The notes under the pieces: model-generated | Database searches by the model: none | What the model saw: the letters and a program-made list of their open reading frames with translations, nothing else | Told to the model about the DNA's origin: nothing | In this document: positions 16,493 through 43,389 of the stretch, piece after piece | Position numbering within the stretch: the first letter of the stretch is position 1 | Layout of the letters: every line of letters starts with the position of its first letter | From: a virus | Taxonomy: Duplodnaviria; Heunggongvirae; Uroviricota; Caudoviricetes | Reading direction: 5' to 3' (one strand) | Virus record (IMG/VR): IMGVR_UViG_3300043172_001414 | DNA length: 64,000 nucleotides | Made by a program: the position numbers and the translations under genes

Positions 16493-16494
16493 AT

Positions 16495-21840: not shown

Positions 21841-23979
21841 ATGGAAAATATTAATTTTATTGTTACTCAACCGGACGGGTTGATCGATCCAGACAACGCA
21901 AATGAAAAACTACAATGGTATCAAATAGTCGAAAAACTAAAGTGTCGCAATGCAACTGAGATTCTGCTAAGCTTCGGTACTAAGCTTGATAATATTAAGC
22001 ACTACGACTTTAGGACTATGGATGTTCTGATGATTGTCTTTAATAAACAGGTTAAGGATAGATTGGTTACATTCTTCCATGAATATAATTTTATGGTCTT
22101 TGAGGGTAATGATAACATTAATTATAATATGCTTGTTCCTTTAGATAGACCTTTGTCTAGTTCCATTATATTTAACTCGTTAAATGATATACTGATGGAT
22201 GGTTTTGGGGATGAGGACATAAGGCTTGATACTTATTTCGAACACCCTATGAAAGATGACTTCTATGTGCAGGAGAATAAGGGTAGGTTCTTGAACCCTA
22301 TAGCATTTATGAAGATTAACTATAAGAAAAAGCTAAGCTATGTAGTACCTATGGGCTTTGATATGGATAAAAAAGAGTACCTATTCTATTCAAAGACTAA
22401 GAATTCATTTGTAGGTATACCATTCGAGAGGGTTAATAAGAACATGCTTAAGGTATTGTGTTCCCAGAATGACTTTTGGGAGTACTACTACCCCAGTTCA
22501 GACCCTAAACAGATCATCGACTGGGAGTTTGCGTGTGATGAACTACGGAATATATGTGATAGCAAGGGCAAGATAGATATATCTAATGGTAAAAGAAACG
22601 GTATATGGGAAGATAATGGTAAATTGGTAGTACACTTAGGTGATAAATTACTGGTGGATGGTGAAGAAAAAGAGATATATGAGTATAGGGGTGAACACTT
22701 CTATGACTTTGACCATAAAATATCATGGGAAGGTGACTCTATAACCCCTGAAGAAGTAGACAAAATGGAAACATACTTCGATATGTTTAACTTTAAGACT
22801 AATAAAGATAAGATGATAGTGATGGGTACAATAATTCCTGCGTTTCTCACTGGTATATTGAGTTGGAGACCATACCTACACATAGGTGGGGTTAATGGTT
22901 CTGGTAAATCTACGGTTGCTAACAACATGCTACGTCCTTTATTCAATGTTTTCAAGAATAAGGTGGCATTGAATGCTACATCAGCTGCAGGTATACAGCA
23001 AGAATATAAGAATAGGGCTAATGTATTACTGTTCGATGAGTTCAAATCGACTGGTGAACATGGTCGTAGTAAGATTGATGGTATACTAGAGCTTGCAAGG
23101 GCAGCTGCATCGGGTAAAGATGGTGTTATTATCAAGGGTACTAGTGGTGGGAAGGCTAATAAAATATCATTAGACTGCTTTTTCATCACCAATGCTACCA
23201 TGTTCCCTGCTAAAGATGTACAGGATAAGGATAGATTCAACATAGTGGAGTTAGAGAAGCTTGAAAACGAGAACTCTAAGATAGAAAGTACCCTACTTGA
23301 TCACTTTACTCCCAAGTTAGGTCTTAAAATCATGAAGAGAGCCGCAAAGATACATAAGGAATTCCTTGAATCTGCAGCTATACTAGAGGAAGCCTTTAGA
23401 AAACTGTTCCCAGATGTTACTTCACGTAATGCACGCAAACTTATGTTACCACTATCCGGCCTATACCACCTACGCCATGATGATATTATTACCCCCCAGA
23501 GTGCGGAAGAGTTGATAGGTACTATAGATTTTACTACTGATACACAGAAAACAATAGAAGAAATAGATTGCTTTGCTGATACTATGCAGAAATTCATGGA
23601 TCACCCATTGAATATACGAGGTAATGAGTCTTCTATCAGGGGGTGGCTATATAAACTCATCACCAATGAGACAGGATCTAGTGTAGATGGTAATATGATT
23701 AAAGATACATTACTAACGAATGGTTTAATGTATAAGGATAACTTCCTATGGTTTAGAATTAACAACCAATCATTGCATAATATCTTTTCCATCTATGGGT
23801 ACGAGTCACACAGACCTATTATTTCACGCTTAGAGGGGTTTGTAACAGGTAAACCTATACTGGTTGATGGTAAGACTCAGAGGTTTGATGGCATACCATA
23901 CGTGTTAGAAGAGGGGCAAGTAGAGCCATCTTTAGAAAGAGATGTTGTATTCGAAGATCACAGTATAGACTTCTCTTGA
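21841..23979 (+). CDS. Putative D5/SF3-type NTPase (primase-helicase-like)
   Basis: 712 aa with Walker A (HIGGVNGSGKST, about aa 347), Walker B (LLFDEF) and an SF3 motif-C-like segment (FFITNAT). Confidence 0.5.
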   Translation: MENINFIVTQPDGLIDPDNANEKLQWYQIVEKLKCRNATEILLSFGTKLDNIKHYDFRTMDVLMIVFNKQVKDRLVTFFHEYNFMVFEGNDNINYNMLVPLDRPLSSSIIFNSLNDILMDGFGDEDIRLDTYFEHPMKDDFYVQENKGRFLNPIAFMKINYKKKLSYVVPMGFDMDKKEYLFYSKTKNSFVGIPFERVNKNMLKVLCSQNDFWEYYYPSSDPKQIIDWEFACDELRNICDSKGKIDISNGKRNGIWEDNGKLVVHLGDKLLVDGEEKEIYEYRGEHFYDFDHKISWEGDSITPEEVDKMETYFDMFNFKTNKDKMIVMGTIIPAFLTGILSWRPYLHIGGVNGSGKSTVANNMLRPLFNVFKNKVALNATSAAGIQQEYKNRANVLLFDEFKSTGEHGRSKIDGILELARAAASGKDGVIIKGTSGGKANKISLDCFFITNATMFPAKDVQDKDRFNIVELEKLENENSKIESTLLDHFTPKLGLKIMKRAAKIHKEFLESAAILEEAFRKLFPDVTSRNARKLMLPLSGLYHLRHDDIITPQSAEELIGTIDFTTDTQKTIEEIDCFADTMQKFMDHPLNIRGNESSIRGWLYKLITNETGSSVDGNMIKDTLLTNGLMYKDNFLWFRINNQSLHNIFSIYGYESHRPIISRLEGFVTGKPILVDGKTQRFDGIPYVLEEGQVEPSLERDVVFEDHSIDFS

Positions 23980-25011: not shown

Positions 25012-26808
25012 TTGGAAATAGCAGCAATCGTTAAATCAGAAATCAAAGTTGTGAGTGTTATGTTTGTAGATTTTCTAAATTTGAAGTTTAAGAATATTCT
25101 CAGTTATGGGAAGAATGAGACCGTTATAGATTTTACCTCAGGGTTGAATCAGATTGTCGGTATGAATGGGCAAGGTAAGAGTTCAATACTTGATGCCCTG
25201 TCCTTTTGTTTGTTCGGTCAAACTTATCGTAAAATTAAACTCGATGAGCTAATCAACCGTAAAAATAAGAAGAATCTACTTACTGAAGTCACATTTGTAG
25301 CTAACGGTGATGAGTATCGTATCGTCAGAGGACTTAAACCCAAAGTCTTAAAAGTTTATAAGAACACGGTTGAGCAAGATGAATTACCTTCCACTGCCAA
25401 GACACAGATCGAGATAGATAATATCCTGGGCATTGACTTCGCTTTATTCAAAGAAGTAATTTGTTTAGCAATAAATTATAATGAACCCTTTCTTATCCTA
25501 CCTAAAAACAAAAAACGGGATTTGGTAGAAAACATATTCCAGATCGGCATCGTCTCCAAGATTTTGGCCGAAATTAAGAACAGGCAAAAAGGTGTAGAGG
25601 TTGATCATAAGCTAAACAAATCTTCTTTTCTCTCAGCTGAGTCCGGTATTGAAAGCACCAAGAAGTATATTCATCAGCTTGAAACTCTAGAAGAGAACTT
25701 CGATAAGAATCAAGAGCGCAACCTAAAGGAAATTCAGGCAGAGATAGACCTGTGTGAAGCGCAAATACTTAACTGTACCAATGGTCGGAATAAAGGAGAA
25801 GAGCTTCTGAGCACCCTTATCCTGGCCGGAAAAGACACCCTGATAAACGATAAAGCTAAAGCATCAGCAAAGATTTCAGAATATCAAAACTCTATTAATA
25901 AAAACAATAGGGACATTGCGCTACTTGATGATAATAGCACCTGCCCTCACTGTCAGTCAGAGATAGATGAAGACCATAAACTCAAACATAAAGAAGAGTT
26001 TGAAGTTAATAACATCACTTTTGGATGTGAGATTGAGATACTAAAAACCCTTATCGTTAAATTATCATCCGATATAAACACTGAAACCGATAAAGAAAAC
26101 AAGAAACGAAAGATAGAGACCCGTTTGCTTCAGATTGATTCTGATCTAAAGCATAATACAGAAAAACTAAAGTCTGCCCAGGATCGATATAAAACCATTG
26201 GAAAAGATAAATTTGACACAGATATCGAATCCTTCCGAAAAGACTTCAGTTTAAAAGAGCAAGAAAGAGATAACCTGAAAGAAATAAATACAGACCTGTT
26301 AAAGAAAATTGAAATAAATACAAAATCGATAGAAGTACTATCTGACAATGGAATAAAATCATATCTATACAAAAAGTTCCTCCCAAATTTAAACGCTAAG
26401 ATCAATGAGTACATTAATCTGTTTGCCTTGCCCGTATCACTTAAGTTTGATGATATGATGGTAGAGAGCATCGAGAACATGATTAATCGTAAACCTATCA
26501 GCTACATGTCATTTAGTGCAGGTGAGCAGAAGAGAATAGACCTTAGTATTATGTTTAGCTTTATCCAGATCATGAAAGATATAGCAAATTGGAGATGTAA
26601 CATTTTATTCCTTGATGAAGTCCTGGACTCTTCTACAGATAATGATGGACTACAAAAAATATTAGAATCTTTACAGAATCTGATATACAGCAATCCGAGC
26701 TTATGCATCTATGTGATTTCACACAGACTCCATAGTAAAGACTTGTTTGCTAAAAAATTGAGAATAGAGAAAGAGAATGGCTTCTCCACTGTGAGAACTG
26801 ACATTTAA
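25012..26808 (+). CDS. 46: Recombination endonuclease subunit gp46 (Rad50/SbcC-like ABC ATPase); the true start is probably the ATG at 25060
   Basis: Walker A (GMNGQGKSS), ABC signature (SFSAGEQKRIDLS), Walker B (ILFLDEV) and long coiled coils. Confidence 0.8.
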   Translation: MEIAAIVKSEIKVVSVMFVDFLNLKFKNILSYGKNETVIDFTSGLNQIVGMNGQGKSSILDALSFCLFGQTYRKIKLDELINRKNKKNLLTEVTFVANGDEYRIVRGLKPKVLKVYKNTVEQDELPSTAKTQIEIDNILGIDFALFKEVICLAINYNEPFLILPKNKKRDLVENIFQIGIVSKILAEIKNRQKGVEVDHKLNKSSFLSAESGIESTKKYIHQLETLEENFDKNQERNLKEIQAEIDLCEAQILNCTNGRNKGEELLSTLILAGKDTLINDKAKASAKISEYQNSINKNNRDIALLDDNSTCPHCQSEIDEDHKLKHKEEFEVNNITFGCEIEILKTLIVKLSSDINTETDKENKKRKIETRLLQIDSDLKHNTEKLKSAQDRYKTIGKDKFDTDIESFRKDFSLKEQERDNLKEINTDLLKKIEINTKSIEVLSDNGIKSYLYKKFLPNLNAKINEYINLFALPVSLKFDDMMVESIENMINRKPISYMSFSAGEQKRIDLSIMFSFIQIMKDIANWRCNILFLDEVLDSSTDNDGLQKILESLQNLIYSNPSLCIYVISHRLHSKDLFAKKLRIEKENGFSTVRTDI

Positions 26809-26823: not shown

Positions 26824-27378
26824 ATGGCTAAAGAGAAAAAACAACCTAAAAAAGGATACATAGATAATGCAACCTTCCTAGAAATGCTAAAAGAATATCA
26901 AATTCTTAACTATGATACCACCGACTGGTTCAGTAAAAAGAAAGCTAAAGACGATACGCAGAAGAAATTTCTTGAAAGAAGAAAAAAACTTCACAAAAGA
27001 CGAATCAAATTAGTTGCAGATGAGACACCTGAACAGCAAGATATGAGAATTAAGAAACTCGACATACTTAAAAATAAGCTAGGTAGATTTTTTCTACTTA
27101 TCTGTGATGGTATTCTGAAGAAACCCAACTTCATTAATTATGACCCACTCAGAAAAGATACAATGGTCAGTGATGGAGTATACTTCATGTGCATTTACAT
27201 TGACAGATATGATACAGACAGAAGCAACCCTTTCGCATACTTCACTCAGATAGCCTTTAATGCATTCTTACAGAACATTAATAAGAACAACAAGAATATG
27301 AGCACTTTTACATCACTGTTCTACATAGAGAACCTTGACAGATCTGATAACATTATAATGTTGGACGACTGGGAATGA
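26824..27378 (+). CDS. 55: Late-transcription sigma factor gp55
   Basis: 184 aa (T4 gp55 is 185 aa). NPFAYFTQIAFNAFLQNI resembles T4 NPHAYITQACFNAFVQRI (recalled from memory). Confidence 0.75.
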   Translation: MAKEKKQPKKGYIDNATFLEMLKEYQILNYDTTDWFSKKKAKDDTQKKFLERRKKLHKRRIKLVADETPEQQDMRIKKLDILKNKLGRFFLLICDGILKKPNFINYDPLRKDTMVSDGVYFMCIYIDRYDTDRSNPFAYFTQIAFNAFLQNINKNNKNMSTFTSLFYIENLDRSDNIIMLDDWE

Positions 27379-29048: not shown

Positions 29049-30104
29049 ATGGCTAAAGTAGCACTAATAACAGATACACACTTTGGAGTTCATGGCAACT
29101 CAGATGTATTTTTAAAGTCCCAACTAAAGTTCTTCAAAAAAGAATTTGTTCCTTATCTAAAGAAACATAACATTACTCGTATATTTCATTTGGGTGATTT
29201 CTGGGACAACAGATCTACTATCAACATTAGATTGAAGAACATTATCATGGAGTTGTTTGATAACGAACTAAAAGATTTTAAGATCACTATGTTAATCGGG
29301 AACCATGACTCATACTTTAAGAACAATATTGAGACACATTCACTTAAGTTTTTAGACAAGTATCCTAACGTCGATGTAATTGAAGATATTAAACTCCTAT
29401 CTATCGCTAACCGTAAGGTATTACTTGTCCCATGGCAGTGTGACGAAGATCAATTCAAGAACCGTATAGCGAACAATAATATCTTCTGTGATGTTATGCT
29501 TGGTCATCTACCAATTATGGGTTTTAAGCTTAATAATAAAAGAGTCAATGAGCACGGGTTGGACACAGAGATACTATTTAATAATTATAACTTAGTATTT
29601 TCAGGTCACTTCCACACCAGAAGTAATATGCAGCGAGCAGAACGTAAGATAGAATATATCGGCAATCCATACCAACTTACGTTTTCTGACGAAGGTGATG
29701 AACGAGGGTTCTGTATTCTCGATCTAGATACCCTTGATTACGAATTTATAAATAACAATACATCTTTAAAGTTTAAAACAGTAGTTTATCCTGAACCCTT
29801 ATACAAGAAAGATATAAGAGGGAACGTAATAAAACTCGAAGTCAACTATGATCAAGAGTTTAGTGAAGAAGAAATTGAAAAGTATATTGATACTTGCGAA
29901 GGATTCAAACCTGCCATTCTCCCTATTACAATCGATCGAAAGTCTAACATACAAGGAACTAGTGAAGACTATAAAGCCGTTGACCTCTTAGAGCTTATTG
30001 ATGAATACCTCGATGAGATCAAAATGGTAGGCAAGAAAGATGTGTATGAAAACATAGAAAATGTATATAGCAACTTACACAATGAGAAGGACATCTGTTT
30101 ATGA
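29049..30104 (+). CDS. 47: Recombination nuclease subunit gp47 (Mre11/SbcD-like calcineurin-type phosphoesterase)
   Basis: Motifs D-T-H-F (ITDTHFG), GDFWD, GNHD and GHFH. Confidence 0.85.
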   Translation: MAKVALITDTHFGVHGNSDVFLKSQLKFFKKEFVPYLKKHNITRIFHLGDFWDNRSTINIRLKNIIMELFDNELKDFKITMLIGNHDSYFKNNIETHSLKFLDKYPNVDVIEDIKLLSIANRKVLLVPWQCDEDQFKNRIANNNIFCDVMLGHLPIMGFKLNNKRVNEHGLDTEILFNNYNLVFSGHFHTRSNMQRAERKIEYIGNPYQLTFSDEGDERGFCILDLDTLDYEFINNNTSLKFKTVVYPEPLYKKDIRGNVIKLEVNYDQEFSEEEIEKYIDTCEGFKPAILPITIDRKSNIQGTSEDYKAVDLLELIDEYLDEIKMVGKKDVYENIENVYSNLHNEKDICL

Positions 30105-31315
30105 GTAAAAAAACCAGCAACCTAGACGAGTTTCAAAAGCAACTACAAGCAGCTACAATAGCTACCCCACCAACAACAGCAAGTGAAGAACTTCCACCAG
30201 GTGTTGTTAAAGTAAAAAAGAATTTAGTTTTATCATTCCTAAGCGATTCTAGCGGTTGTGGGCATATTAGAAACATCTTCTGGATGACTTATCTCAACTC
30301 GGTATTTGGTAAGTCTGGTCGGATGAGCATGCTACTTGCCCCATCGTTCGTATATCAAAACGATATACTTTCAAGAACACGCTCAATTTTTTTCCAACGT
30401 CAAATGACCCCCGATCATCTTACAGTTATAAAGCAGTACAAAGAGAATCAACCTAAGTTCAAATATAAAATGATATGGGAGATGGACGATCACATCCATG
30501 GGTTCAACGAAAACCAAGGCGGTACTACTGATGAAGGCGTACCATCATACAACTTCGGCAGTAAAGGCATCACCAAAGAAATTAAAACAGCATCAGTTGA
30601 AATCATGAAGCTCATGGATCTTGTTACCGTTTCCACACCATTTCTAAAAAATTATTATGAGAAAGAACTCGGCATTAAGACAAAGATCCAGGTTATACCC
30701 AACTGCGTCCCTCAGTACTTCTGGGGACACGAAAGAAAATCTGACATAACTGAAGTCATTAAAAAACCTAAAGTCATCTACACAGGCTCTCCTACTCATT
30801 ATCATAATGGTGAAAAGAGACTTGGGGACTGGGATAACGCATGGAAAGATTGGGTAATTAAATCAGTCAATAATGATGAAATAGATTTTACCGTGTTTGG
30901 TGGCCTCCCGTGGTTCATGGATGAGATTAAAGATAAGATCAAGGTACATGGATGGGTAAATTCTTACCAGTATCCAAACCTAGTTAAAAGCGAAAAAGCA
31001 GACTTTGGTATCATGCCTCTCGTAAGAAATCAATTTAACAGTGCAAAGAGCGATCTAAAGTTCCTCGAACATTCAGCAGATGGTGTATTAGCTATCGGAA
31101 GTACATTTACAGATGGTTCATCATCCCCATATGACCATAATTTTCTTACAATGCCGGAAGATTGTACAGTCGAAGATATCGACTCCATGATTAAAAAGTA
31201 CTCAGAGCCTAAGAACTTTAACAGAATTCGAAGACTGCAGTATGAAAAAATGGAGAATGAAGGTCGTTACCTCGAATCTCGACAATATATTGAGCGTTTA
31301 GTTAATATATTTTAA
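30101..31315 (+). CDS. Putative GT-B glycosyltransferase resembling T4 alpha-glucosyltransferase (agt)
   Basis: 404 aa (T4 agt is 400 aa). DSSGCGHIRNIF resembles GLEGCGVTKF in T4 agt; the gene sits in the 55/47/46 neighbourhood where agt lies in T4. Confidence 0.4.
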   Translation: MSKKTSNLDEFQKQLQAATIATPPTTASEELPPGVVKVKKNLVLSFLSDSSGCGHIRNIFWMTYLNSVFGKSGRMSMLLAPSFVYQNDILSRTRSIFFQRQMTPDHLTVIKQYKENQPKFKYKMIWEMDDHIHGFNENQGGTTDEGVPSYNFGSKGITKEIKTASVEIMKLMDLVTVSTPFLKNYYEKELGIKTKIQVIPNCVPQYFWGHERKSDITEVIKKPKVIYTGSPTHYHNGEKRLGDWDNAWKDWVIKSVNNDEIDFTVFGGLPWFMDEIKDKIKVHGWVNSYQYPNLVKSEKADFGIMPLVRNQFNSAKSDLKFLEHSADGVLAIGSTFTDGSSSPYDHNFLTMPEDCTVEDIDSMIKKYSEPKNFNRIRRLQYEKMENEGRYLESRQYIERLVNIF

Positions 31316-31322
31316 TAACTAC

Positions 31323-31351
31323 TTGACTCTAGTTAATATATTTGATATACT
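31323..31351 (+). promoter_or_regulatory. Sigma70-type early promoter TTGACT-17-TATACT followed by the AGTACATAAAA motif
   Basis: Upstream of the SPFH/DHH operon. Confidence 0.6.
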
Positions 31352-31384
31352 ATTAGTACATAAAATATATTAATTGGAGTTAAT

Positions 31385-32641
31385 ATGAAAGATAGATCAT
31401 CTGATGATCAGAGAAGTTTTCTTGATAAGTACAAAGGCAGGATAATTTTACTCGCAATACTAGCAGTCGTCACCCTAATATCAACTACAGTACTTTATTC
31501 ACAAATATGGGAAACAAACTTCTCAGGTTATTATAAAGTAAAGCAAACAGCATATTGGGGAACAATGTCAGTCGTCAATAACACTGGAACATTTACTAAA
31601 GCATTTGGAACTGTCCACCCATATCAAGTTTCTGATATGTACTACTTCTCTACATCAGATGAAGAAGGAGGATCAGGAAAAGAAGCAGACCCTATTTCAA
31701 TTAGGTTTAATGGTGGTAGTACAGCCTTTATTTCAGGCTCAATCAAGTACAGACTTTCTCGTGTAGATAGCACTCAATTACTACTCCATGAAGACTTTAA
31801 AAGCTACGCTGCAGTTAAGCAAGATCTCATTAGGCAAACCGTAGCTGAAGCACTTAAACAAACCGCAACACTAATGAAAGCCGAAGAATCATACTCGTCT
31901 AGAAGATCTGAGTTTACAACCGTAGCTGAAGGGCAAGTACGAAACGGTATATACATGACCGAGAAACATGTGTATAAGTATAAAGATGCTCAAGATCAAG
32001 AGTTCATTAAGAGAGAAGTTAAAATCAAACTAGACTCCAATAAACAACCAGTCGTCATGAAGGGATCACCATTTAAAACATACGATATAGAGATACTTCA
32101 GTTTGTTATTAAAGATATTGATTATGATCCTACCATCGACAGTTTGATTGCTGAGAAAAAAGAGATTGAGCAGAATAAAGCAGTATCTAAATCAAAAGCT
32201 GAAACCGCTAAACAAAATGCCATCACCAAAGAAATGCAAGGTACGGCACTTATCGCTGAGGCTAAAGCTCTAGAAGAAGTGAAGAAAATTCAAGCCGTTA
32301 CAGAGGCTCTTAAAGAGAAAGAAGTTGCAATTCTTAAAGCTGAAAAGAATTATAAGATAGCTCAACTCGGAGCCAGAGAAGCAATCGAGAAAGCTAAGAA
32401 GATTATTGCAGAAGGTCGAGCTGAAGCAACCGCAAATAAACTAAAGGTAGCTGCAGGTCTTTCCCCTCAAGAAAAAGCTTCATGGAAATATAAAACTGAA
32501 GTAGGCATAGCCAATGCACTGAAAGACATTAACGTTCCAGGTATCGTTATAGTTGGTGGTAAACAATCTAGTGGTGCAAACCCACTCGACATGATTGGCA
32601 TTAATATGGCACTCGATATCCAGAAGAAAATGAAAAAATAA
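31385..32641 (+). CDS. SPFH/band-7 (stomatin/prohibitin/HflKC-like) membrane protein
   Basis: N-terminal transmembrane helix (ILLAILAVVTLISTTVLY), a central band-7-like region and an Ala/Glu/Lys-rich C-terminal coiled coil (AEAKALEEVKKIQAVTEALKEKE…). Confidence 0.6.
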   Translation: MKDRSSDDQRSFLDKYKGRIILLAILAVVTLISTTVLYSQIWETNFSGYYKVKQTAYWGTMSVVNNTGTFTKAFGTVHPYQVSDMYYFSTSDEEGGSGKEADPISIRFNGGSTAFISGSIKYRLSRVDSTQLLLHEDFKSYAAVKQDLIRQTVAEALKQTATLMKAEESYSSRRSEFTTVAEGQVRNGIYMTEKHVYKYKDAQDQEFIKREVKIKLDSNKQPVVMKGSPFKTYDIEILQFVIKDIDYDPTIDSLIAEKKEIEQNKAVSKSKAETAKQNAITKEMQGTALIAEAKALEEVKKIQAVTEALKEKEVAILKAEKNYKIAQLGAREAIEKAKKIIAEGRAEATANKLKVAAGLSPQEKASWKYKTEVGIANALKDINVPGIVIVGGKQSSGANPLDMIGINMALDIQKKMKK

Positions 32642-32661
32642 ACCAATCACTGTAGGTCGAT

Positions 32662-33606
32662 ATGAAACATAACTCTATCTACAGTGGCTTTAGATTATTA
32701 CAAAGTCAGAGAGTACTTAGCATCTCTGATGGGGATATGGATGGGTCAGCATGTCAACTAATATTAGGTAATGTATTTCCTCGGAGTCACATTACCTATG
32801 TTACAGCATCTGGTATGACCATTGATAAAATCTTAGACACTGTTAAATTTAATAATTATGACGTTGTGTATATAACTGATATTACACCAAGTCCAGATAA
32901 CATAGCATATCAGTTAAACTACGATAAGATAATCCTTATAGATCATCATGATACCGCAATTGAAATGAATGACCCTGAATATGGTAAGGTAGTTAACTCT
33001 GATCACTGTAGTTCATACATATTAAAAGAACATATGAAGAAGTGGTACGATGTAGATTTATCTTATCTCGATAGCTTCATTACTTTAGTTGAAGACTATG
33101 ATCTATGGACTGAAGTAAATCCTAGAAGCAAATATCTTGCACGATTATTTCATCACTACAAACCTATTCAGTTTAAGAAAAGATTCTTTCAAGGCGTGGT
33201 TGACTTCAATAAAGATGAATTAAAAGTAATCAATGATGATAAAAAGAAGTTACAAGTTGAATTAGACGCTACTAATCATTCTTTTAATTGTCAGGATTAC
33301 ACTCATGTTAATGGTATACTTCTAAGACTTAATAACTTCTCAAATGAAATATGTAACATTAAATTGACCAAAGGATACAATATTGTATTCTCATCCAACA
33401 GCTTTAACAATGTATCAATTCGTAGCAAATTAGATTGTATACATATTGGTAAGGTATTAAAGGAAAGAGGAATTGGTGGTGGTCATCAGCATGCTGCAGG
33501 ATTTTCAGCTAAATCTTATATTGACGTTCGGGAAACAGTTAGAAGCATAGCATCAGAACTATATGATAACTTCCCAGAAATTCGTAAAAAACACTCTCAA
33601 CTCTAA
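32662..33606 (+). CDS. DHH-DHHA1 family phosphoesterase (NrnA/RecJ-core/GdpP-like)
   Basis: Motif I (SDGDMDG), the DHH motif (LIDHHDT) and the DHHA1 GGGH motif (GIGGGHQHAAGF); 314 aa, the size of NrnA. Confidence 0.7.
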   Translation: MKHNSIYSGFRLLQSQRVLSISDGDMDGSACQLILGNVFPRSHITYVTASGMTIDKILDTVKFNNYDVVYITDITPSPDNIAYQLNYDKIILIDHHDTAIEMNDPEYGKVVNSDHCSSYILKEHMKKWYDVDLSYLDSFITLVEDYDLWTEVNPRSKYLARLFHHYKPIQFKKRFFQGVVDFNKDELKVINDDKKKLQVELDATNHSFNCQDYTHVNGILLRLNNFSNEICNIKLTKGYNIVFSSNSFNNVSIRSKLDCIHIGKVLKERGIGGGHQHAAGFSAKSYIDVRETVRSIASELYDNFPEIRKKHSQL

Positions 33607-33618
33607 ATAAAATAACAT

Positions 33619-36210
33619 ATGTTTAAAAATATTTATGTAGACAATAAAACTAAACAAGTCCATATATGGGAATGTTTTAACGGTAAAACTGTAAAGCTTA
33701 CAGAAGACCTAAATTCTTATTTCTACGTTGAAGATCGCAGCGGTGCAACAGTTCATACTGACATTTATGGAACTCCTGTAATCAAAAAATATACTCGCAA
33801 TAAATATATGGATGTTAAGAAATACAAAAAACTCCAACTTAAAATTTGTGAATCTGACATTAGTGAAGATATTAAATACCTTCAAGAACGATACCAGGAT
33901 GTTGATATTAAGACAGACATGAATAATATTCATACTGCATATATTGATATTGAAGTAGCTGGTGAAAAGGAATTTCCAGAACCAGATTTAGCATTATATC
34001 CTATAAATCTAATTACTGTTAAAAGCTCAACAACAAAAAAACTATACACCTTCGGAACATCACCAATGACTCGAAAATGTTTAGGAGTTGAAAAATATGC
34101 ATACATAGAGAATGAACTTGATATGCTCACATCATTTGTTACTTGGTGGTCAAATATGAAATTTGATATTGTAACAGGATGGAACTCTACTGGTTTTGAT
34201 ATGAAATATATCATCAATAGAATTAAAAACCTTACAACCAATGGAATTGAAAAAAAACTATCACCACTTGGTATTGTAGAACTCGTTGAGAAAAAAACAC
34301 GGAAACAAGACGGCAAGATAGAAATTAAGAACGTGTATAAAATAGCAGGTCTATCGCAACTGGATTACCTTGAACTATATAAGAAGTTCACATTTGAAAC
34401 ACAACCTTCATATACTTTAGATAACATTGGTATTGCTGAAGTCCAAGAAGGCAAGATCGGCCTTGAAGGAACCATCAATACAATATACAAAACAAATTGG
34501 GATAAATTTGTAGAATATAACATTCAGGATGTACTCTTAGTTGAAAAAATAGATAACAAACTAAAGTTTATTGAACTAGTAGTATCACTTTGTTACCAGA
34601 CATTAATACCATTTGAAAAAGTATTTAGTTCTATATCCGTACTTGAAGGCTTTATTCTTCGTGACCTCCACAAAAGAAAAATGGTAATGCCGGATAGAAA
34701 AATAATTACCCGTGATTGGTGGTTGGAAGAAGGATATTACAAAGTAAACGGTGAACTTCAAAATGTAAAAACTGACGACAAAAAGAATAAAAATAACAAA
34801 ACGTTTGAACCATTTTATATCAAGGGTGGGTATGTATATGCAGAGCCTGGGTTTTATGAAGACTGCCTATCATTCGACGTAGAGTCTGAATACCCCAAAG
34901 AGATTGTGATCTATAATATCTCCCCTGAAACTAAAGTAATCAAACCCTCCCCTGAACGAGCCAAACATTTAATAAAATCTGAAATCAACGGGGTATACTA
35001 CAAAAAAGATGTACAAGGTATATTCCCATCCATAGTTGAAAGAATTTTTGATGAGAGAAAATACTTTAAAGATCTAATGAGCGAATGTGAAAAAAAAGGT
35101 GACAAGCAAGGAGAACAGTTTAATTACTCAATGCAACTAATCAGAAAAATTATGATTAATAGTTTATACGGTGTTATGGGTTCAGAATACTTTCACTTTT
35201 ACGATGTTGATAATGCTAGAGCAGTAACAAGAGGTGGTAGAGTTCTTATCAAATTTTTAGGAGCGGAGACTAATAAATATTTTAAAAATTATTGGCATAA
35301 AGTATATACTTGTTATTTTCCTGAAATTGAGAATCCACCCCAACTTAAAAATGATCTAGTATTTGTTATTGATACCGACTCTAACTATATCAATCTAAAT
35401 GAAATTAAGAAGAACTACGCTCCTGACATGGACTACATGGAGTTTGCCACCATAATGGATGAAAAAGTACTAGAACCTTTCTTTGTTAAGATATTAGATA
35501 TTTATCATGCAAAACGTGGAGTTAAAAACCTAATAAGATATAAACGTGAAGGAATTATAACTAAACAATTTGTACTTGCCAAGAAAAAATACATAGTGGA
35601 ACTATTAGCTCACGAAGACAAAGTATATGATAAACCAACAATTAAATATAAAGGTGTTGAAGTTGTCAGAAGTGATACCCCTATGTTTAGCCGGAAAACA
35701 ATCAAAGATGTTATTCAGGAATTATTTGATAATCTCGATAAAGAAATGACTATTAAAACATTGAGAAAATCTAAAAAGGCATTTAAGACAGAAGATATAG
35801 AAAATATCAGTTCAGTGTCCGGTATAAACGGATATGAAAAATATTCATTTCCACATGAATATTATATCGAGAAAGGATTAGTGTTTAAGAAATCTACCCC
35901 CATACATAATAGAGCATGTATATGTTACAATTATCTAATAAAAAAGTATGAATATCCATATATGGAAGTGGCTAATGGTAGCAAAATAAAATACGTATAT
36001 ATAAAAGACGAGAACATAATCAATAGTAATGTTATCGCTTACATTGGAAATTACCCAAAAGAGTTCAACCAGTTATTTAAAATAGATTACGACACTCAAT
36101 TTGAAAAGACCTTCATGAATGTTATTCAGAGAATGTTTACAGTATTGGGATGGGGAAAAATAAATCTTCGTGGAAATCAGTTGGGTAAATTTCTGAAAAA
36201 GAAAAAATAA
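33619..36210 (+). CDS. 43: Family B DNA polymerase (gp43)
   Basis: 863 aa; exonuclease motif DIEV, polymerase motif A (SLYGVMG) and motif C (IDTDS). Confidence 0.9.
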   Translation: MFKNIYVDNKTKQVHIWECFNGKTVKLTEDLNSYFYVEDRSGATVHTDIYGTPVIKKYTRNKYMDVKKYKKLQLKICESDISEDIKYLQERYQDVDIKTDMNNIHTAYIDIEVAGEKEFPEPDLALYPINLITVKSSTTKKLYTFGTSPMTRKCLGVEKYAYIENELDMLTSFVTWWSNMKFDIVTGWNSTGFDMKYIINRIKNLTTNGIEKKLSPLGIVELVEKKTRKQDGKIEIKNVYKIAGLSQLDYLELYKKFTFETQPSYTLDNIGIAEVQEGKIGLEGTINTIYKTNWDKFVEYNIQDVLLVEKIDNKLKFIELVVSLCYQTLIPFEKVFSSISVLEGFILRDLHKRKMVMPDRKIITRDWWLEEGYYKVNGELQNVKTDDKKNKNNKTFEPFYIKGGYVYAEPGFYEDCLSFDVESEYPKEIVIYNISPETKVIKPSPERAKHLIKSEINGVYYKKDVQGIFPSIVERIFDERKYFKDLMSECEKKGDKQGEQFNYSMQLIRKIMINSLYGVMGSEYFHFYDVDNARAVTRGGRVLIKFLGAETNKYFKNYWHKVYTCYFPEIENPPQLKNDLVFVIDTDSNYINLNEIKKNYAPDMDYMEFATIMDEKVLEPFFVKILDIYHAKRGVKNLIRYKREGIITKQFVLAKKKYIVELLAHEDKVYDKPTIKYKGVEVVRSDTPMFSRKTIKDVIQELFDNLDKEMTIKTLRKSKKAFKTEDIENISSVSGINGYEKYSFPHEYYIEKGLVFKKSTPIHNRACICYNYLIKKYEYPYMEVANGSKIKYVYIKDENIINSNVIAYIGNYPKEFNQLFKIDYDTQFEKTFMNVIQRMFTVLGWGKINLRGNQLGKFLKKKK

Positions 36211-36221
36211 TAGGAGAAGAT

Positions 36222-37280
36222 ATGAGCATATATAAAAAATTAATGGGAAATAAAGACCTGCTAGATAAAATGATGGAAGATGATTACCAACCAGAATACC
36301 TCTCATCCGGTGTTATAGTTATGAACCTGTTACACAAAGGTAAAGTAGATAAGGCTGTAAAAATTGGTTGTATTGAACAAATAAGTGCAGACTCTTCATT
36401 TGGCAAATCATTTATTGCATGTAACATCCTTAAGAACGCACAAAGACATGGAATGGAATGTGTAGTGATTGATACAGAGAGAGCTTTTAACAAAGACCTT
36501 GCTGGAAGTATTGGAGTTGATCTTGACAAACTTCCAATACTACAAACCGCTAACATGCATAAAATCACTCAAGCACTCGCTCTTATGACAGAAGGTAAGA
36601 CAAGAAAAGAACGAAGAAACGTCTTTGTACTTATCGACTCATGGGGAACACTCGTTGACGAAGCTACAATGGTTAAAGCAGCTGACGGTAACTCTACTCA
36701 AAACATGAGACTACCACAAGAGAAAAATAAACTCGCAAACTACATGAATGAAACCGATATGACATACTACGTTGTGAACGGTGTATACAAAAATACTGGT
36801 GGATTTGGAGACCCTTATCAAATCGGTGGTGGTGGTAGACTAAAGTTTAACAGTGAATCAATTGTACTTGCAACATCAAAAGCAAAAGAAAAAGACTCAT
36901 CTGGAAAAGTTATCGGTGCTATCATAACGTGTGAATCTCACAAAGGCAGAAGTGCTATTGAAAAATCAACTAAACTTCAGTTTAGAATCAAGCACGATGG
37001 TGGGTTAGATATTTATTTTGGACTACTTCCAGACGCTCTTCTTCATGGCTGTATTACTAAACCTAAAAACGGCTGGTATCATAGACCAGAGTTTGACGAA
37101 GAAGGAAAAAATTGGAGAGAATCAAAACTTTATTGTAAAGAATTCTGGGAAGACCTATTAAGAAAAACTGATTTTAAAGAATTTCTAGAATCGAAATATA
37201 GCTACGAAGATCGAGAAATAGATGTAGCTGAAAATGATGCAACAGATTTCTTTGATGATAATCTAATGGAAGAGGGATAG
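36222..37280 (+). CDS. uvsX: RecA-like recombinase UvsX
   Basis: Walker A (SSFGKSF). The C-terminal region FGLLPDALLHGCITKPKNGWYHRPEFDEEG resembles T4 UvsX YSGLLDMALELGFVVKPKNGWYAREFLDEETG. Confidence 0.85.
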   Translation: MSIYKKLMGNKDLLDKMMEDDYQPEYLSSGVIVMNLLHKGKVDKAVKIGCIEQISADSSFGKSFIACNILKNAQRHGMECVVIDTERAFNKDLAGSIGVDLDKLPILQTANMHKITQALALMTEGKTRKERRNVFVLIDSWGTLVDEATMVKAADGNSTQNMRLPQEKNKLANYMNETDMTYYVVNGVYKNTGGFGDPYQIGGGGRLKFNSESIVLATSKAKEKDSSGKVIGAIITCESHKGRSAIEKSTKLQFRIKHDGGLDIYFGLLPDALLHGCITKPKNGWYHRPEFDEEGKNWRESKLYCKEFWEDLLRKTDFKEFLESKYSYEDREIDVAENDATDFFDDNLMEEG

Positions 37281-38639
37281 ATGGACGAATTGGATTTTGA
37301 AAACATAATAGTTCATTCAATATTAAGAAGTAAGGTAATCAGAGAAAAGCTATATCCTTTTCTCTCTACCATACCTTTGTTTAAAATATTTGACAACCCA
37401 TCAAATCAACAAATAATACGGAAGTACTTTAATTATAAAGAAGAATATAACGAGTTCCCAAATATAAAAAATCTAGAACTCTACGTTAAAAATGATGAGA
37501 TCTTATCTAATGTTAAAAAGATTCTAGAAATAGACATGAAAGAATATCAGAAAGATCAAATTATGGACGAGATTGAAAAGTTCTTCCAGGAAAAATTATT
37601 ATGGTACAACATTCTTACCGTAAAAGACGCTCTTGAAGAAAGAAAACTCGACACCATCAATGATGTTGCTGATAACATTAGAGAAGCCTTAACGTTCTCA
37701 TTTAACACCAATGTAGGTCTTGACATATCGAACGATACCGACCGCATGTACACATATATTCATAATAAAGAAAAAGCTGTATCTACTGGTATTGATAAAC
37801 TTGATGAACAACTCGACGGAGGTTTTCATGAGAAATCTCTGATCCTATTCCTAGGGTCTACCAATATTGGCAAGACCCTAGTACAGTGTGCTTTCGCTTC
37901 TAACTGCCTTAGAGACAATCAAAATGTTCTCTATGTCTCACTAGAAGAATCGGAAGATAAGCTCTCTAAGAGGTTCCTAGCCAACATGTTTGATGTAGAA
38001 ATCAATGAATTGAAAAATCTTTCAAAGAAAGAATTCTATCGCAAACATGAGAAACTAAAGAAACAAACAGAACGACTTATTGTTAAAGAATACCCAGGAG
38101 GAACAATCAATGCTAACCACCTTAGAAACCTCCTAAAAGAACTTGAAGTGAAAAAAGGATTTAAACCAAAAATAATGTTTATCGATTACTTAGGCTGCAT
38201 GATGCCTAATAAAAATGTGGTAGGCAATTCTAATGAAGTCCTTAAAGCAATAACAGAAGAAGTGAGAGCAATATCCCAGGAATACGGCTTCCCGATAGTC
38301 TCTGGACTTCAAACTAATAGAGGTGGGTTTGGTAATGTTAACGTTGAGCTAACCGACACTGCAGAATCTATTGGTGCTACATTCAAGGCTGATGCCATTT
38401 ATGGTATAGTTCAGAACGAAGAACTAGCAGCAGCTAACGTTTACCTTTTAAAATTACTGAAGAGCCGTTTTGGCGATAACTTCGGGAAGGTTAAAGTTAA
38501 GGTAAGTAAACCGAAAATGAGATTATACAACTTTGAACCAGAGGAAGAAGAAGAACAATTTTACGATGAATTCGCATCACAGGATCACGCTATCTTAAAG
38601 AAAGATAATACTAGCCCTGCAGAATTGGACTTCAGTTAG
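37281..38639 (+). CDS. 41: Replicative DnaB-family helicase gp41
   Basis: 452 aa; Walker A (GSTNIGKT); RecA-like C-terminal domain; adjacent to the primase gene. Confidence 0.8.
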   Translation: MDELDFENIIVHSILRSKVIREKLYPFLSTIPLFKIFDNPSNQQIIRKYFNYKEEYNEFPNIKNLELYVKNDEILSNVKKILEIDMKEYQKDQIMDEIEKFFQEKLLWYNILTVKDALEERKLDTINDVADNIREALTFSFNTNVGLDISNDTDRMYTYIHNKEKAVSTGIDKLDEQLDGGFHEKSLILFLGSTNIGKTLVQCAFASNCLRDNQNVLYVSLEESEDKLSKRFLANMFDVEINELKNLSKKEFYRKHEKLKKQTERLIVKEYPGGTINANHLRNLLKELEVKKGFKPKIMFIDYLGCMMPNKNVVGNSNEVLKAITEEVRAISQEYGFPIVSGLQTNRGGFGNVNVELTDTAESIGATFKADAIYGIVQNEELAAANVYLLKLLKSRFGDNFGKVKVKVSKPKMRLYNFEPEEEEEQFYDEFASQDHAILKKDNTSPAELDFS

Positions 38640-38647
38640 GAGGGTTT

Positions 38648-39040
38648 ATGATAGAAGACAACACACCTAAATTACCAGACAATTTGAAAGATAAGGACGT
38701 TGAAGCTGAGATTTATAAAACTATAAATAAAAAGAAGTTCTTTGAAATTATGAATATGAATAGTATTGATTTTGAGAAAGTAATTCTAAAAAAGAAATCC
38801 TACAATAAGGACTTCCATAAATTTAATTACTTGATTAAGAAGCTAGTTAATGAAACAGATATCACATTTATTGAATGTGCCATATATCTTCACACTGATT
38901 TCTTTAAGGAAAAAGCCGTCTTTGATTGCTTTAACGAGGAGAATTATCACGAGCTTCGAGCGGAGTTTGCTGAGAAGTATGATTTTAATATGGACTCCAA
39001 TATACTGAAGAATTTTATCAAGTGGACTAAAAAGAAATAA
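38648..39040 (+). CDS. Hypothetical protein (in the position of the T4 gene 59 neighbourhood)
   Basis: 130-aa ORF between gp41 and gp32. Confidence 0.3.
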   Translation: MIEDNTPKLPDNLKDKDVEAEIYKTINKKKFFEIMNMNSIDFEKVILKKKSYNKDFHKFNYLIKKLVNETDITFIECAIYLHTDFFKEKAVFDCFNEENYHELRAEFAEKYDFNMDSNILKNFIKWTKKK

Positions 39041-39063
39041 TTACTAAAATATATGCACTGCTA

Positions 39064-39092
39064 TTGACTTTTGCCCTTTTTAAGGGTATAAT
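39064..39092 (+). promoter_or_regulatory. Sigma70-type promoter TTGACT-17-TATAAT upstream of gene 32
   Basis: Perfect hexamers; the spacer contains the CCCTTTTTAAGGG palindrome. Confidence 0.6.
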
Positions 39093-40201: not shown

Positions 40202-41212
40202 ATGAATAAGAAACTTGAAGCACAAATTTTAGAAAAATTCTTAAAACTTACTGTAGGTCGATTTGATCAAGCTATTATTAAAGATGGTGAAATCCAGATC
40301 AACTGCAATATCTGTGGAGACTCAGAAAAAAAGAATAAATTAAGAGGACACTTAAAGCGTGGTGAATCCGAAGATTTTTGGTTTTACAAATGTTTTAATG
40401 CAGGTTGCTCAGCTTCTGACGTATGGTCAGCAAGAAGATGGTTGAAAGAAACCGACATCTCTAATTACAAACTCTACTGTAAAGAGAGCTTGGAATATAA
40501 TAATATTAAAAGAAAACACGTAGGGTCAACTGAAGTAACCCCTGCTAATATAGCTCCTATCAAAAAAGAACCAGATGCTTATTCCTATATGAAAGACTTC
40601 AGACCGATGAATCATTCTAACGAACTTATCTTTAGAAAAGCAATTCATCAATGTCAACAACGTCAAATACCAGAACACATCTATAGTAAGTTCATGGTTG
40701 CCGTTGACGGCCCTTACTATGATAGAATGATTATTCCATTCTACGATCATAAGGATAAGTTCTACTACTTTCAGGCTCGCACACTATCTAATAAAGAACC
40801 TAAGTACCTTAACATGAAAGGCCGCAAAGAGTCTGCAATATATAACCTATATAATATTGATCATAGTAAACCAGTCATTGTTACGGAAGGCCCCATAGAT
40901 TCAATGTTCGTCGATAATGCCATTGCATCTCTTGGTTTAGATATGTCTAAGAGTATGAAAAAGACATTGAACAAATTAGACTGCTACTACTTATTCGATA
41001 ACGATAAAGCAGGTAAGGCTCAAGCTAAGAAGTACTACCACAACGGTCATAAGGTTTTTATCTGGGAAAAGTTTAAACACTATAACCATAAGCATAAAGA
41101 CATTAACGATATAATATTAAACTGTGACACGAAACACTTTAGTTTTGAAGATCTTGCGAGCTGCTTTGACAACTCCTATAGCGACTACCGCTATTACCTG
41201 GGGAAATACTAA
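40202..41212 (+). CDS. 61: DNA primase gp61 (zinc finger plus TOPRIM)
   Basis: CNICGD…CFNAGC zinc ribbon; TOPRIM motifs IVTEGPIDSMF and YYLFDNDKAG; 336 aa. Confidence 0.8.
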   Translation: MNKKLEAQILEKFLKLTVGRFDQAIIKDGEIQINCNICGDSEKKNKLRGHLKRGESEDFWFYKCFNAGCSASDVWSARRWLKETDISNYKLYCKESLEYNNIKRKHVGSTEVTPANIAPIKKEPDAYSYMKDFRPMNHSNELIFRKAIHQCQQRQIPEHIYSKFMVAVDGPYYDRMIIPFYDHKDKFYYFQARTLSNKEPKYLNMKGRKESAIYNLYNIDHSKPVIVTEGPIDSMFVDNAIASLGLDMSKSMKKTLNKLDCYYLFDNDKAGKAQAKKYYHNGHKVFIWEKFKHYNHKHKDINDIILNCDTKHFSFEDLASCFDNSYSDYRYYLGKY

Positions 41213-41637
41213 TGAATCTTGAGAAGCACGAAAATAACGAACTAATCAAAAGCATAAGAGTTGAGATGTCAGTAAAGAATGGTGTCACTGCAAGTGTGAT
41301 GTTTGATTATTATGATAAAGAATTTATGGTGTTTGAGATTTACCATCTAAAGATCGCTGACATTGATAATGTTAGAAGCTTATGTGACAACAAAGGCATG
41401 GCTGTAATTCATATGCAGAATGATAAACTTAAAAATCTGAGCTTATTTAAAATTAAGAATTTTCCCAACAAATCTATTCCTGTTGTTGACAGGCTATCTG
41501 AAGAAGACTACTACTCGTATTCGCCAAAAACTAATATTTCAAACGCTGTATGGACTAGTTCTCACGGAGTTCATGCACCAATTTCAAATACACACCCACA
41601 AGCACCTATCCCTCCTCCAAAGCGTAAGACTAAATGA
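41212..41637 (+). CDS. Hypothetical protein
   Basis: 141-aa ORF. Confidence 0.35.
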   Translation: MNLEKHENNELIKSIRVEMSVKNGVTASVMFDYYDKEFMVFEIYHLKIADIDNVRSLCDNKGMAVIHMQNDKLKNLSLFKIKNFPNKSIPVVDRLSEEDYYSYSPKTNISNAVWTSSHGVHAPISNTHPQAPIPPPKRKTK

Positions 41638-42059
41638 ACAATTGGACATACAAAAAGAAAGAATTTACATCAGAAATGATCAAAGAAAACTTTGGCTTCA
41701 TCTATCTGATCACTAATATAACTACAGGGAAACTGTACATAGGTAAAAAACAGTTTCATAGCTATCGTAAAATAAAACAAAAAGGTAAAAAGAACAGAAA
41801 GCTAGTCATAAAAGAATCTGACTGGAAGAAATATCACGGATCTAGCAAACATCTTCGTGAAGACCTTGATAAAGATGGATTAGATAAGTTTGATCGAACC
41901 ATGATAAAAATATGTAAGACTAAATGGGAACTAACTTACTATGAAGCTGCAGAACAATTTAAAAGACAAGTACTCCTAAAGAAAGATAAAAAAGGTGAAC
42001 GTGTTTATTACAATGAAAACATATTGAATAAATTCTTCCCACCGAGGAAGCAGGTATAA
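41634..42059 (+). CDS. Free-standing GIY-YIG nuclease domain protein (seg-like)
   Basis: FGFIYLITNITTGKLYIGKK, with downstream R…H…E…N residues. Confidence 0.6.
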   Translation: MNNWTYKKKEFTSEMIKENFGFIYLITNITTGKLYIGKKQFHSYRKIKQKGKKNRKLVIKESDWKKYHGSSKHLREDLDKDGLDKFDRTMIKICKTKWELTYYEAAEQFKRQVLLKKDKKGERVYYNENILNKFFPPRKQV

Positions 42060-42936: not shown

Positions 42937-43389
42937 ATGGCAGGTAAATGGTATCAAGGCGTTTATGACGTTCAGAATAAGAAGAAATATATGGGCAACA
43001 GTGCACCAATCTATAGGTCAAGTTGGGAAAAGAGAGCAATGTGGTGGTTGGATAATAACGAAAATATTATTCGATGGGGCAGTGAGATAATCACAATCCC
43101 TTACTTCTACACTGTAGACAACAAAGTCCACAAGTACATAGTAGATTTTTATGCTGAAGCAAAATCTAAAGGTAATAAAATTATTAAGATACTGATTGAA
43201 GTTAAACCTTCAGACCAGTGTGAATACCCTAAGATGCCCAAAAAGAGGACTCAGAAGTCATTGAAGAACTACAGGAACCGTTACTTAATGGTAGAAAAAA
43301 ATAAGTGTAAGTGGACTGCAGCAGAGCAGTATTGCAAGCACAACGGGTATGAGTTTAAAATTATAACGGAACACGAATTATTTTCATAG
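42937..43389 (+). CDS. Hypothetical protein, possibly PD-(D/E)xK-like
   Basis: IVDFYAE…ILIEVK pattern; 150 aa. Confidence 0.3.
   Translation: MAGKWYQGVYDVQNKKKYMGNSAPIYRSSWEKRAMWWLDNNENIIRWGSEIITIPYFYTVDNKVHKYIVDFYAEAKSKGNKIIKILIEVKPSDQCEYPKMPKKRTQKSLKNYRNRYLMVEKNKCKWTAAEQYCKHNGYEFKIITEHELFS

Follow-up and report, generated by a model that had tools for sequence, protein, structure and literature searches.

The DNA analysed here is a 64 000-nt stretch of an uncultured T4-like phage (IMG/VR record IMGVR_UViG_3300043172_001414; the whole stretch is hereafter called the window), and the size of the whole phage is given as ~249 kb. The question raised by this locus is whether two genes lying side by side behind a strong promoter belong together. 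The first (31385–32641, + strand) encodes a 418-aa SPFH/Band-7 single-pass membrane protein. The second (32662–33606, + strand) encodes a 314-aa protein, predicted to be a stand-alone DHH-DHHA1 phosphodiesterase. A sequence-only reading had taken the two for a module driven by an early promoter and separated by a 20-nt gap. The gap was found at 32642–32661 (+ strand), as an intergenic spacer with a weak AGG ribosome-binding site. The interpretation of SPFH and DHH as a functional or conserved two-gene module was not supported, because the two genes do not co-occur across phages.

Related loci were collected by searches anchored separately on the DHH gene, on the SPFH gene and on GT404, the gene located upstream of the promoter (30101–31315, + strand). 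GT404 encodes a ~400-aa glycosyltransferase-like protein (PHROG glycosyltransferase, 1.9e-15; Pfam Glyco_trans_1_2, 2.5e-4, below cutoff). The DHH-anchored set consisted of 33 IMG/VR loci and three other contigs; scanning IMG/VR with the single DHH protein matched nothing, and the loci were obtained with an alignment-based scan. The GT404-anchored set consisted of 80 loci picked irrespective of the presence of DHH, 66 of which were T4-like and assessable. The SPFH gene was present in 0/33 DHH-anchored and 0/80 GT404-anchored loci. Conversely, none of 35 SPFH-anchored viral loci had DHH, PolB or gp47 within 6 kb, and no contig was common to the SPFH-anchored and DHH-anchored sets. The sequence-only reading had itself named co-occurrence of the pair in other phages as the point on which it could fail, and in these sets the pair was shared by no other phage. 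A 292-aa gene following SPFH in the phage-like contig L012 was considered as a possible DHH gene and rejected, its sequence being unrelated. The DHH protein P0002 is 86% identical to that of the window, and its contig stops short of the upstream neighbour.

The DHH gene was found in a constant position. Nearly all DHH-anchored loci were colinear, in the order gp46-gp55-gp47-GT404-DHH-PolB-UvsX-gp41-gp32. Among the T4-like GT404-anchored loci, the arrangement was GT404-DHH-PolB in 57/66, GT404-DHH in 2/66 and GT404-PolB without DHH in 7/66, so that DHH occupies the GT404 site in 59 of the 66. This synteny is kept by relatives whose PolB is only 35–54% identical to that of the window. On this gene order, DHH is an ancestral and nearly universal member of the replication-recombination block of the clade. 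Two of the seven GT404-PolB exceptions have DHH at a different site of the contig, ~2.2 kb ahead of the gp44 clamp loader gene. In one such arrangement (L017/L020, 7992–8858), the gene is gone from the GT404-PolB site and follows, with overlapping start and stop codons, a run of sugar-modifying genes (GFO/IDH/MocA oxidoreductase, GT1 and ADH). The idea that GT404 and DHH remain a unit even after relocation in L017 was discarded, the gene upstream of DHH there not being GT404. The placing of DHH outside the T4 core by the sequence-only reading was borne out: classical T4 phages do not have the gene, and a tblastn search of 50 697 GenBank phages with the DHH protein returned two distant matches only.

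The way in which the two genes became adjacent was deduced from the closest relative, the L014 contig (75% identity for gp47, 75–78% for GT404, 76% for PolB and 81% for UvsX). The intergenic region following GT404 in L014 aligned base for base with window positions 31316–31384, including TTGACT, the spacer, the –10 box and the ribosome-binding site. In L014, this promoter and 5′ untranslated region (5′UTR) run straight into the DHH start codon, and the window SPFH open reading frame (ORF) begins where the L014 DHH ORF begins. Since the orthologous promoter/5′UTR leads directly to DHH in L014, the alignment indicates that SPFH was inserted, in one lineage only, exactly between the ancestral promoter/5′UTR and the DHH start codon. 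In a three-way alignment, the 20-nt spacer between SPFH and DHH showed no alignment to the GT404-DHH intergenic region of L014, and it would have been created by the insertion. By reading of the alignments, homology with the family resumes ~15 codons into the window DHH gene; the protein thus has a 12-residue N-terminal extension relative to the family (alignment A1, 14 sequences).

The GC content at third codon positions of SPFH (0.28) is inside the range of the neighbouring genes. A recent transfer could not be argued from composition, which gives no sign of it; either the insertion is not very recent or the donor was of similar composition. The DHH genes of the window and of L014 (8001–8903) encode proteins of 49% identity, uniform along the gene and with sharp transitions at the gene borders. 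This low value may reflect either fast evolution or replacement of DHH alongside the SPFH insertion, and DHH could have been replaced in this way by recombination with a third phage.

The promoter was located where the sequence-only reading had placed it, ahead of SPFH at 31323–31351 (+ strand): TTGACT (31323–31328), a 17-nt spacer and TATACT (31346–31351). It begins 8 nt past the stop codon of the upstream gene. It is followed by the 5′UTR (31352–31384, + strand), in which a GGAG Shine-Dalgarno sequence (31376–31379) lies 5 nt ahead of the SPFH ATG. The window contains seven occurrences of TTGACW-N16-18-TATAMT against 0.54 expected, and none of 100 shuffled sequences reached seven; the promoter is therefore more than a chance match. 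Each of them is on the + strand, in most cases immediately ahead of an early or middle gene (gp46, SPFH, gp32 and others). Its description as early also agrees with the data, the promoter being of the sigma70 type and non-late. In the window motif scan, late promoters TATAAATA were absent from the SPFH-DHH region, and 12 exact copies of this T4-type motif were found at 2111–21237 on the minus strand, just upstream of structural genes. These fit the gp55 late sigma factor gene of the window (26824–27378, + strand).

The promoter is not specific to the SPFH-DHH pair, as had been supposed. PolB, a family-B polymerase (gp43-like; 33619–36210, + strand; Pfam DNA_pol_B and DNA_pol_B_exo1; PHROG 8e-178), starts 12 nt past the DHH gene in the same transcription unit (in the 57 loci with both genes, it is as a rule the immediate neighbour of DHH), and is followed by the UvsX recombinase and gp41 helicase genes (36222–38639, + strand; PHROGs). 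No terminator-like site was found on the + strand from 31323 to 39064, where the next promoter of the consensus scan is located (39064–39092, + strand). Because the + strand is free of such sites as far as that promoter, the transcription unit is predicted to be SPFH-DHH-PolB-UvsX-gp41 and not a two-gene cassette. Contigs L004 and L005 likewise carry TTGACT-17-TATATT after GT404, and of 57 distinct loci, 12 have a strong promoter in this place, the expected number being 0.016 per 230 nt. The promoter at 31323 is the ancestral promoter of a DHH-PolB-UvsX-gp41 operon, with orthologues in L014, L004 and L005.

The DHH protein belongs to the DHH/DHHA1 superfamily, having both motifs I–IV and GGGH. 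The motifs were assigned in alignment A1 as D25xD27, D73, D94-H95-H96, D147, S252xR254 and G272GGH275. The protein matched PHROG ‘DHH phosphoesterase’ (1e-17) and, just under the cutoff of 25.9 bits, Pfam DHHA1 (23.9 bits); its homologues carry PF01368 and PF02272 in the Joint Genome Institute (JGI) annotation. Together with the AlphaFold2 (AF2) and Foldseek results and the conserved residues, these matches upheld the initial assignment, including the DHH and GGGH motifs. Among 66 distinct sequences of the clade, D27 is present in 65 and D73, D94-H95-H96, D147, G274 and H275 in all. Because the metal-binding and GGGH residues are essentially invariant in these 66 sequences, the protein is most simply taken as an active enzyme, as opposed to a degenerate Cdc45-like scaffold. 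Residue 23 (32728–32730), preceding motif I, is His in 63/66 sequences and Asp in the window and one other; in alignment A1, Asp is otherwise found only in P0003, from the L014 contig. This would be a lineage-specific change beside the metal site. In two contigs, L008 and L009, the DHH protein is called with only 263/267 aa. A real N-terminal truncation was rejected, as the DNA is identical to that of the window and the short form is a gene-calling artefact: the JGI calls (3378–4181) start at an internal Met and drop motif I, and entries of the P0001 type are thus truncated.

The AF2 model of the DHH protein (pLDDT 91) has two core domains joined by a helical linker and a short, unstructured N-terminus. 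Pfam detected no extra domain, and no N-terminal hydrophobic helix was seen by eye. The closest PDB entry was 6mtz, an uncharacterised protein of H. pylori (hmmsearch 2e-11, Foldseek 4e-17). Trailing structures in hmmsearch (1e-4 to 2e-3) were P. furiosus RecJ, TM1595, RecJ-Cdc45, SH1221 and GdpP. In Foldseek, which confirmed the folds of both the SPFH and DHH proteins (that of DHH with probability 1.0), 6mtz was followed by mycobacterial NrnA, PggH, TM1595, Rv2837c, DhhP, RecJ cores and GAN (1e-10 to 1e-8). The best viral model in BFVD was the ‘oligoribonuclease NrnB’ of Bacillus phage AR9 (E 1.4e-19, TM-score 0.74–0.78), ahead of DHH proteins of many jumbo phages and giant viruses. Most homologues, including the 50%-identical P0003, are labelled COG2404/NrnB by JGI; the NCBIfam NrnB model gave no match to the window DHH protein. 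These sequence and fold matches suggest a stand-alone phosphodiesterase of the NrnB/NrnA type, a kind already annotated in AR9/PBS1, other large phages and giant viruses.

As to function, we tentatively favour, at somewhat short of an even chance, the clearing of short oligonucleotides, both ribo- and deoxyribo-, down to mononucleotides as the role of the DHH protein in replication, recombination and nucleotide salvage. The host-type (sigma70) promoter at 31323 would drive SPFH, DHH, PolB, UvsX and gp41 in an early/middle replication operon. DHH would then act as an NrnB/NrnA-type exonuclease converting short RNA and DNA oligonucleotides to mononucleotides. Its substrates could be pentamer primer remnants left by RNase H and the end-products that gp46/47 and other nucleases make from host or phage nucleic acid. 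The mononucleotides would feed the phage ribonucleotide reductase and polymerase, and a build-up of nanoRNA would be prevented. The role would be comparable to that of E. coli Orn or T4 DexA. The window also encodes a primase, an RNase H and a ribonucleotide reductase. In cultured phages, the homologous genes keep neighbours concerned with nucleic-acid processing: the AR9 gene lies between an SF2 helicase and a DnaQ exonuclease gene, that of Nachito overlaps/adjoins a triphosphate tunnel metalloenzyme gene, that of LysYB1 adjoins a NUDIX gene and that of Moorella phage MTATph1 precedes SbcD/SbcC by 1.2 kb. The NrnB family is defined by assignment to COG2404 together with a DHH domain and GGGH (Myers et al. 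2025, PMC12709177). NrnB enzymes are 3′-5′ exonucleases acting on 2–4-mers, and that of B. subtilis cuts a DNA 5-mer as fast as RNA (PMC12709177, PMC10570053). The three NrnB enzymes tested did not cleave cyclic di-AMP (c-di-AMP) (PMC12709177).

Several observations weigh against this proposal. Identity to characterised NrnA and NrnB enzymes is only 12–19%, and nanoRNases, RecJ cores and GAN score alike in Foldseek (~1e-10 to 1e-8). JGI labels the window's own protein (the truncated P0001) as a nanoRNase/pAp phosphatase, i.e. NrnA-type. Five loci have no DHH at the GT404-PolB site, and DHH may therefore be dispensable. A DexA/Orn-like enzyme may lie elsewhere, the window being 64 kb of ~249 kb. 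Finally, DHH diverges faster than its neighbours (49% identity vs 75–80% for gp47, GT404, PolB and UvsX), which is also what a gene engaged in an arms race would show. In the literature searched, no biochemically characterised phage DHH enzyme was found, though the genes recur in jumbo phages and giant viruses.

The main rival, a serious one that we consider possible though unlikely, takes up the alternative named by the sequence-only reading: DHH would be a RecJ/GAN-like 5′-3′ single-stranded DNA exonuclease, the viral counterpart of bacterial RecJ or archaeal GAN/RecJ-Cdc45. It would assist gp46/47 in resecting ends, or the polymerase and helicase at the fork. This rival draws on the genomic context: DHH forms one block with gp46, gp47, UvsX, gp41 and PolB in ~60 loci, and the Moorella phage DHH gene near SbcD/SbcC is an independent case. 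There are weak N-terminal matches to NCBIfam RecJ_archaeal (4e-7) and, in the PDB, to P. furiosus RecJ and RecJ-Cdc45, and RecJ cores and GAN are among the Foldseek matches at ~1e-9. The RecJ_archaeal match, however, scores 29.2 bits against a cutoff of 360 and covers residues 13–102 only. At 314 aa, the protein is without the OB-fold and C-terminal domains of RecJ and without the archaeal CID insertion; in sequence and fold it is closest to stand-alone proteins of the nanoRNase type, and a T4-type RNase H/FEN is already encoded. A specific form, in which DHH is a replisome or recombination nuclease, an active viral GAN/RecJ-Cdc45 counterpart co-transcribed with and physically coupled to PolB or gp46/47, was judged improbable. 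If true, it would mean that the clade handles primer removal or 5′ resection differently from T4. The other suggestion that bears on chemistry is action on a small phosphate ester: pAp, polyphosphate/pyrophosphate, or 2′,3′- or 3′,5′-cyclic mononucleotides. The top fold matches include the PAP phosphatase 8a8k, some related phage proteins bear the annotation ‘exopolyphosphatase’ and the Nachito gene overlaps that of a triphosphate tunnel metalloenzyme. The C-terminal domain is, however, DHHA1 (GGGH and SxRS) and not the DHHA2 of pyrophosphatases and exopolyphosphatases, and B. subtilis NrnB released no phosphate in a pAp-phosphatase assay (PMC10570053). We regard this activity as decidedly improbable.

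A role in counter-defence, the main idea of the sequence-only reading, was also weighed, DHH being in this case a phosphodiesterase directed early in infection against c-di-AMP, the cyclic nucleotides of CBASS or the cyclic oligoadenylates of type III CRISPR. Expression from a host-type promoter and the faster evolution of DHH relative to its neighbours are in its favour, as is the ability of some DHH-DHHA1 enzymes to cleave c-di-AMP or cyclic tetra-adenylate, with GdpP, Rv2837c and DhhP among the fold matches. Counter-defence genes are expected in variable accessory regions; the DHH gene, by contrast, keeps a fixed position in a core replication operon among relatives whose polymerases have diverged widely. 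PADLOC gave no match for DHH, its models describing defence systems and not anti-defence genes. The same role has already been proposed for DHH proteins of jumbo phages (Iyer et al., PMC7824862), but no phage DHH enzyme with signal-cleaving activity was found in the literature searched, and c-di-AMP was not cleaved by NrnB, the closest subfamily with characterised members (PMC12709177). An anti-defence role is thus conceivable but disfavoured, with a low probability. Lower still is that of a membrane-tethered pair, in which the SPFH scaffold would recruit the phosphodiesterase in the manner of an archaeal membrane-associated DHH-DHHA1 nuclease. The two genes lie side by side in one transcription unit, 20 nt apart, and the pair is kept in five near-identical metagenomic copies. 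Against this, the pair was absent from all three anchored sets, the neighbour of SPFH in L012 is unrelated to DHH, and the DHH protein has no transmembrane segment (by eye) or added domain. The insertion junction, moreover, indicates that the adjacency would be an accident of where SPFH landed. This arrangement was considered very improbable.

The SPFH protein belongs to the SPFH/Band-7 superfamily, as the sequence-only reading had proposed for this membrane protein. Its score of 38.6 bits with Pfam Band_7 (PF01145) exceeds the cutoff of 23.6, and it also matched phrog_11908 (1e-41). In the AF2 model, a transmembrane helix (~19–41) is followed by an SPFH domain (~52–247), a ~108-residue helix (249–356) and C-terminal helices. 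Foldseek placed HflK/C at the top, then erlin, flotillin, stomatin and prohibitin, with probability 1.0; no PDB relative was found at the sequence level. A positive-inside count by eye (~+2 on the N-terminal side vs +1 on the C-terminal side) was too weak to give an orientation. This modelled architecture predicts an oligomeric membrane cage. The protein would have been acquired from bacteria or from a different phage, and would work independently of DHH, forming such a cage or an oligomeric scaffold in the membrane. That it modulates a host membrane protease or stabilises the membrane is a guess.

More than 500 homologues of the window SPFH protein were found, the best 120 at 45–62% identity. 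Genome matches were from Spirochaetota metagenome-assembled genomes (MAGs) in 16 of 19 cases, and there the gene has a stable chromosomal context (DUF401, CoA-binding protein and SDF symporter). In Thiospirochaeta-like genomes, SPFH directly follows FtsH. A function as FtsH modulator, suggested by this adjacency in Thiospirochaeta perfilievii, was rejected because the adjacency was seen in only 3 of 20 bacterial loci, the remaining spirochaete loci having the DUF401 context in common. Spirochaetota are only a lead for the phage host. The family is also frequent on large viral contigs, amid small early-type ORFs, and crAss001-like, Vibrio pVp-1-like and Aeromonas phages have annotated genes for more distant versions. 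In a neighbour-joining tree, phage and bacterial SPFH proteins are interleaved and the window protein groups with one bacterial-looking and one phage-looking contig; the donor is thus not told by the tree. PADLOC gave no match for SPFH or GT404. On IMG/VR contigs of 60–200 kb (L068–L085), SPFH was observed near HD_4, PRPP synthetase and NAMPT genes (an NAD salvage set), and also near AAA, ClpP-like and DUF2201 genes. In seven loci, a ~130-aa ORF without Pfam match lies immediately downstream of SPFH. One 146 658-bp contig (LNEN01000305.1; L060/L078), assigned to a ‘Cytophagales bacterium’ MAG, has the same sequence as an IMG/VR viral contig, and is probably a phage contig mis-binned into the MAG.

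A recorded contig of 248 963 bp encodes an identical SPFH protein, and the phage is for this reason probably a jumbo phage. By blastn, no DNA-level match to the region was found in GenBank phages. The best cultured relatives of PolB are cyanomyoviruses and Pelagibacter phage HTVC008M (31–33% identity), and dozens of metagenomic contigs belong to the clade. In the first 21 kb of the window, structural genes, the portal gene among them, occupy the minus strand. Upstream of GT404 on the + strand are gp46/SbcC (25012–26808) and gp47/SbcD (29049–30104). Other window genes identified by Pfam or PHROG encode gp32, a T4-type RNase H, ribonucleotide reductase and the gp44 clamp loader; a gp61-type primase is encoded at 40202–41212. 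A 712-aa protein (21841–23979) matches in addition a PHROG ‘DNA primase’ family (5.9e-57). No antisense ORF of more than 59 aa was found in the SPFH-DHH region, and no Rfam family over 28–40 kb.

Throughout the clade (~80 related loci, L103–L178), the GT-B-like GT404 keeps its place between gp47 and DHH/PolB, with which it is colinear in the 66 T4-like loci. A further set of very large viral contigs, of up to 424 kb, has it in another context. Its position beside genes 47 and 55 resembles that of the T4 alpha-glucosyltransferase, and GT404 may be a DNA glycosyltransferase. The RNase H gene is flanked by genes for a SegE-type GIY-YIG homing endonuclease (41634–42059) and a TnsA-like endonuclease (42937–43389). 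In relatives, GIY-YIG, HNH or NUMOD3 endonuclease genes and intein signatures are scattered through the replication block, e.g. between GT404 and DHH or between DHH and PolB. The ribonucleotide reductase ORF (43398–46565) has 1055 aa, and its PHROG match is split into two stretches, which may reflect an insertion or an intein. A cluster of 18 tRNA genes, three of them tRNA-Met, is located at 54187–63158 on the + strand, with small ORFs between them.

With these results, a tempting anti-defence ‘module’ is taken off the list of candidates. What remains is a large uncultured T4-like clade that keeps, directly upstream of its polymerase, a stand-alone DHH nuclease whose sequence suggests that it is catalytically intact. 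With its constant place among replication genes, this DHH family would be a suitable starting point for the biochemistry of viral DHH proteins. The SPFH insertion appears to be a clear case in which a gene has taken over the slot next to the promoter of an essential operon. It also adds to a scattered, unexplained set of phage-borne SPFH proteins.

The SPFH protein was compared with known systems of the superfamily. It has the same transmembrane helix, SPFH domain and long helix as HflK/HflC and the SPFH proteins of phages (the ‘SPFH-domain/band7-family protein’ of crAss001, the pVp-1 group and phrog_11908), and the genes of cultured phages encode proteins of 27–34% identity to it. HflK/HflC are tandem paralogues around FtsH, whereas the window has a single SPFH gene between GT404 and DHH and does not belong to that system. 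Nor does it have an SPFH-NfeD operon, neither neighbour matching NfeD in Pfam.

The DHH protein is most like NrnB and the NrnB-like proteins of phages (AR9/PBS1 g157, SP-15 and Herelleviridae), with which it shares the length of ~300 aa, the DHH and DHHA1 domains, the catalytic motifs and a two-helix linker, at an identity of only ~18–27%. NrnB-A has a long basic C-terminal extension that is missing in the window protein. H. pylori has an enzyme of the NrnB-B clade, and 6mtz may be that enzyme. The gene differs in its context, fixed directly upstream of PolB in a T4-like operon, which was not seen in the cultured phages examined. NrnA relatives (Rv2837c/CnpB, TM1595, PggH and Borrelia DhhP) have the same two-domain fold and size (Foldseek E ~1e-10), but their sequence scores are much weaker than that of 6mtz (E 1e-3 to 0.1) and the linker of the window protein is longer and helical. 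RecJ and archaeal GAN/RecJ-Cdc45 share with it the DHH-DHHA1 core and a genomic link to recombination and replication genes. Bacterial RecJ, of ~550–700 aa with an OB-fold and a C-terminal domain, is about twice as long as the window protein, which has the core only; Foldseek matches span just this core (TM-score normalised to the target, 0.27–0.30). The protein also falls outside the archaeal RecJ/GAN/RecJ-Cdc45 family, being without CID and far below the family cutoff, and outside GdpP/MAD, having neither the N-terminal transmembrane helices nor the PAS and GGDEF domains (GdpP). T4 DexA and E. coli Orn would share with the window protein its proposed role, in the last step of nucleic-acid breakdown to mononucleotides while phage DNA is made. 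They have a DnaQ-like DEDD fold in place of DHH, and would thus be analogues, not homologues.

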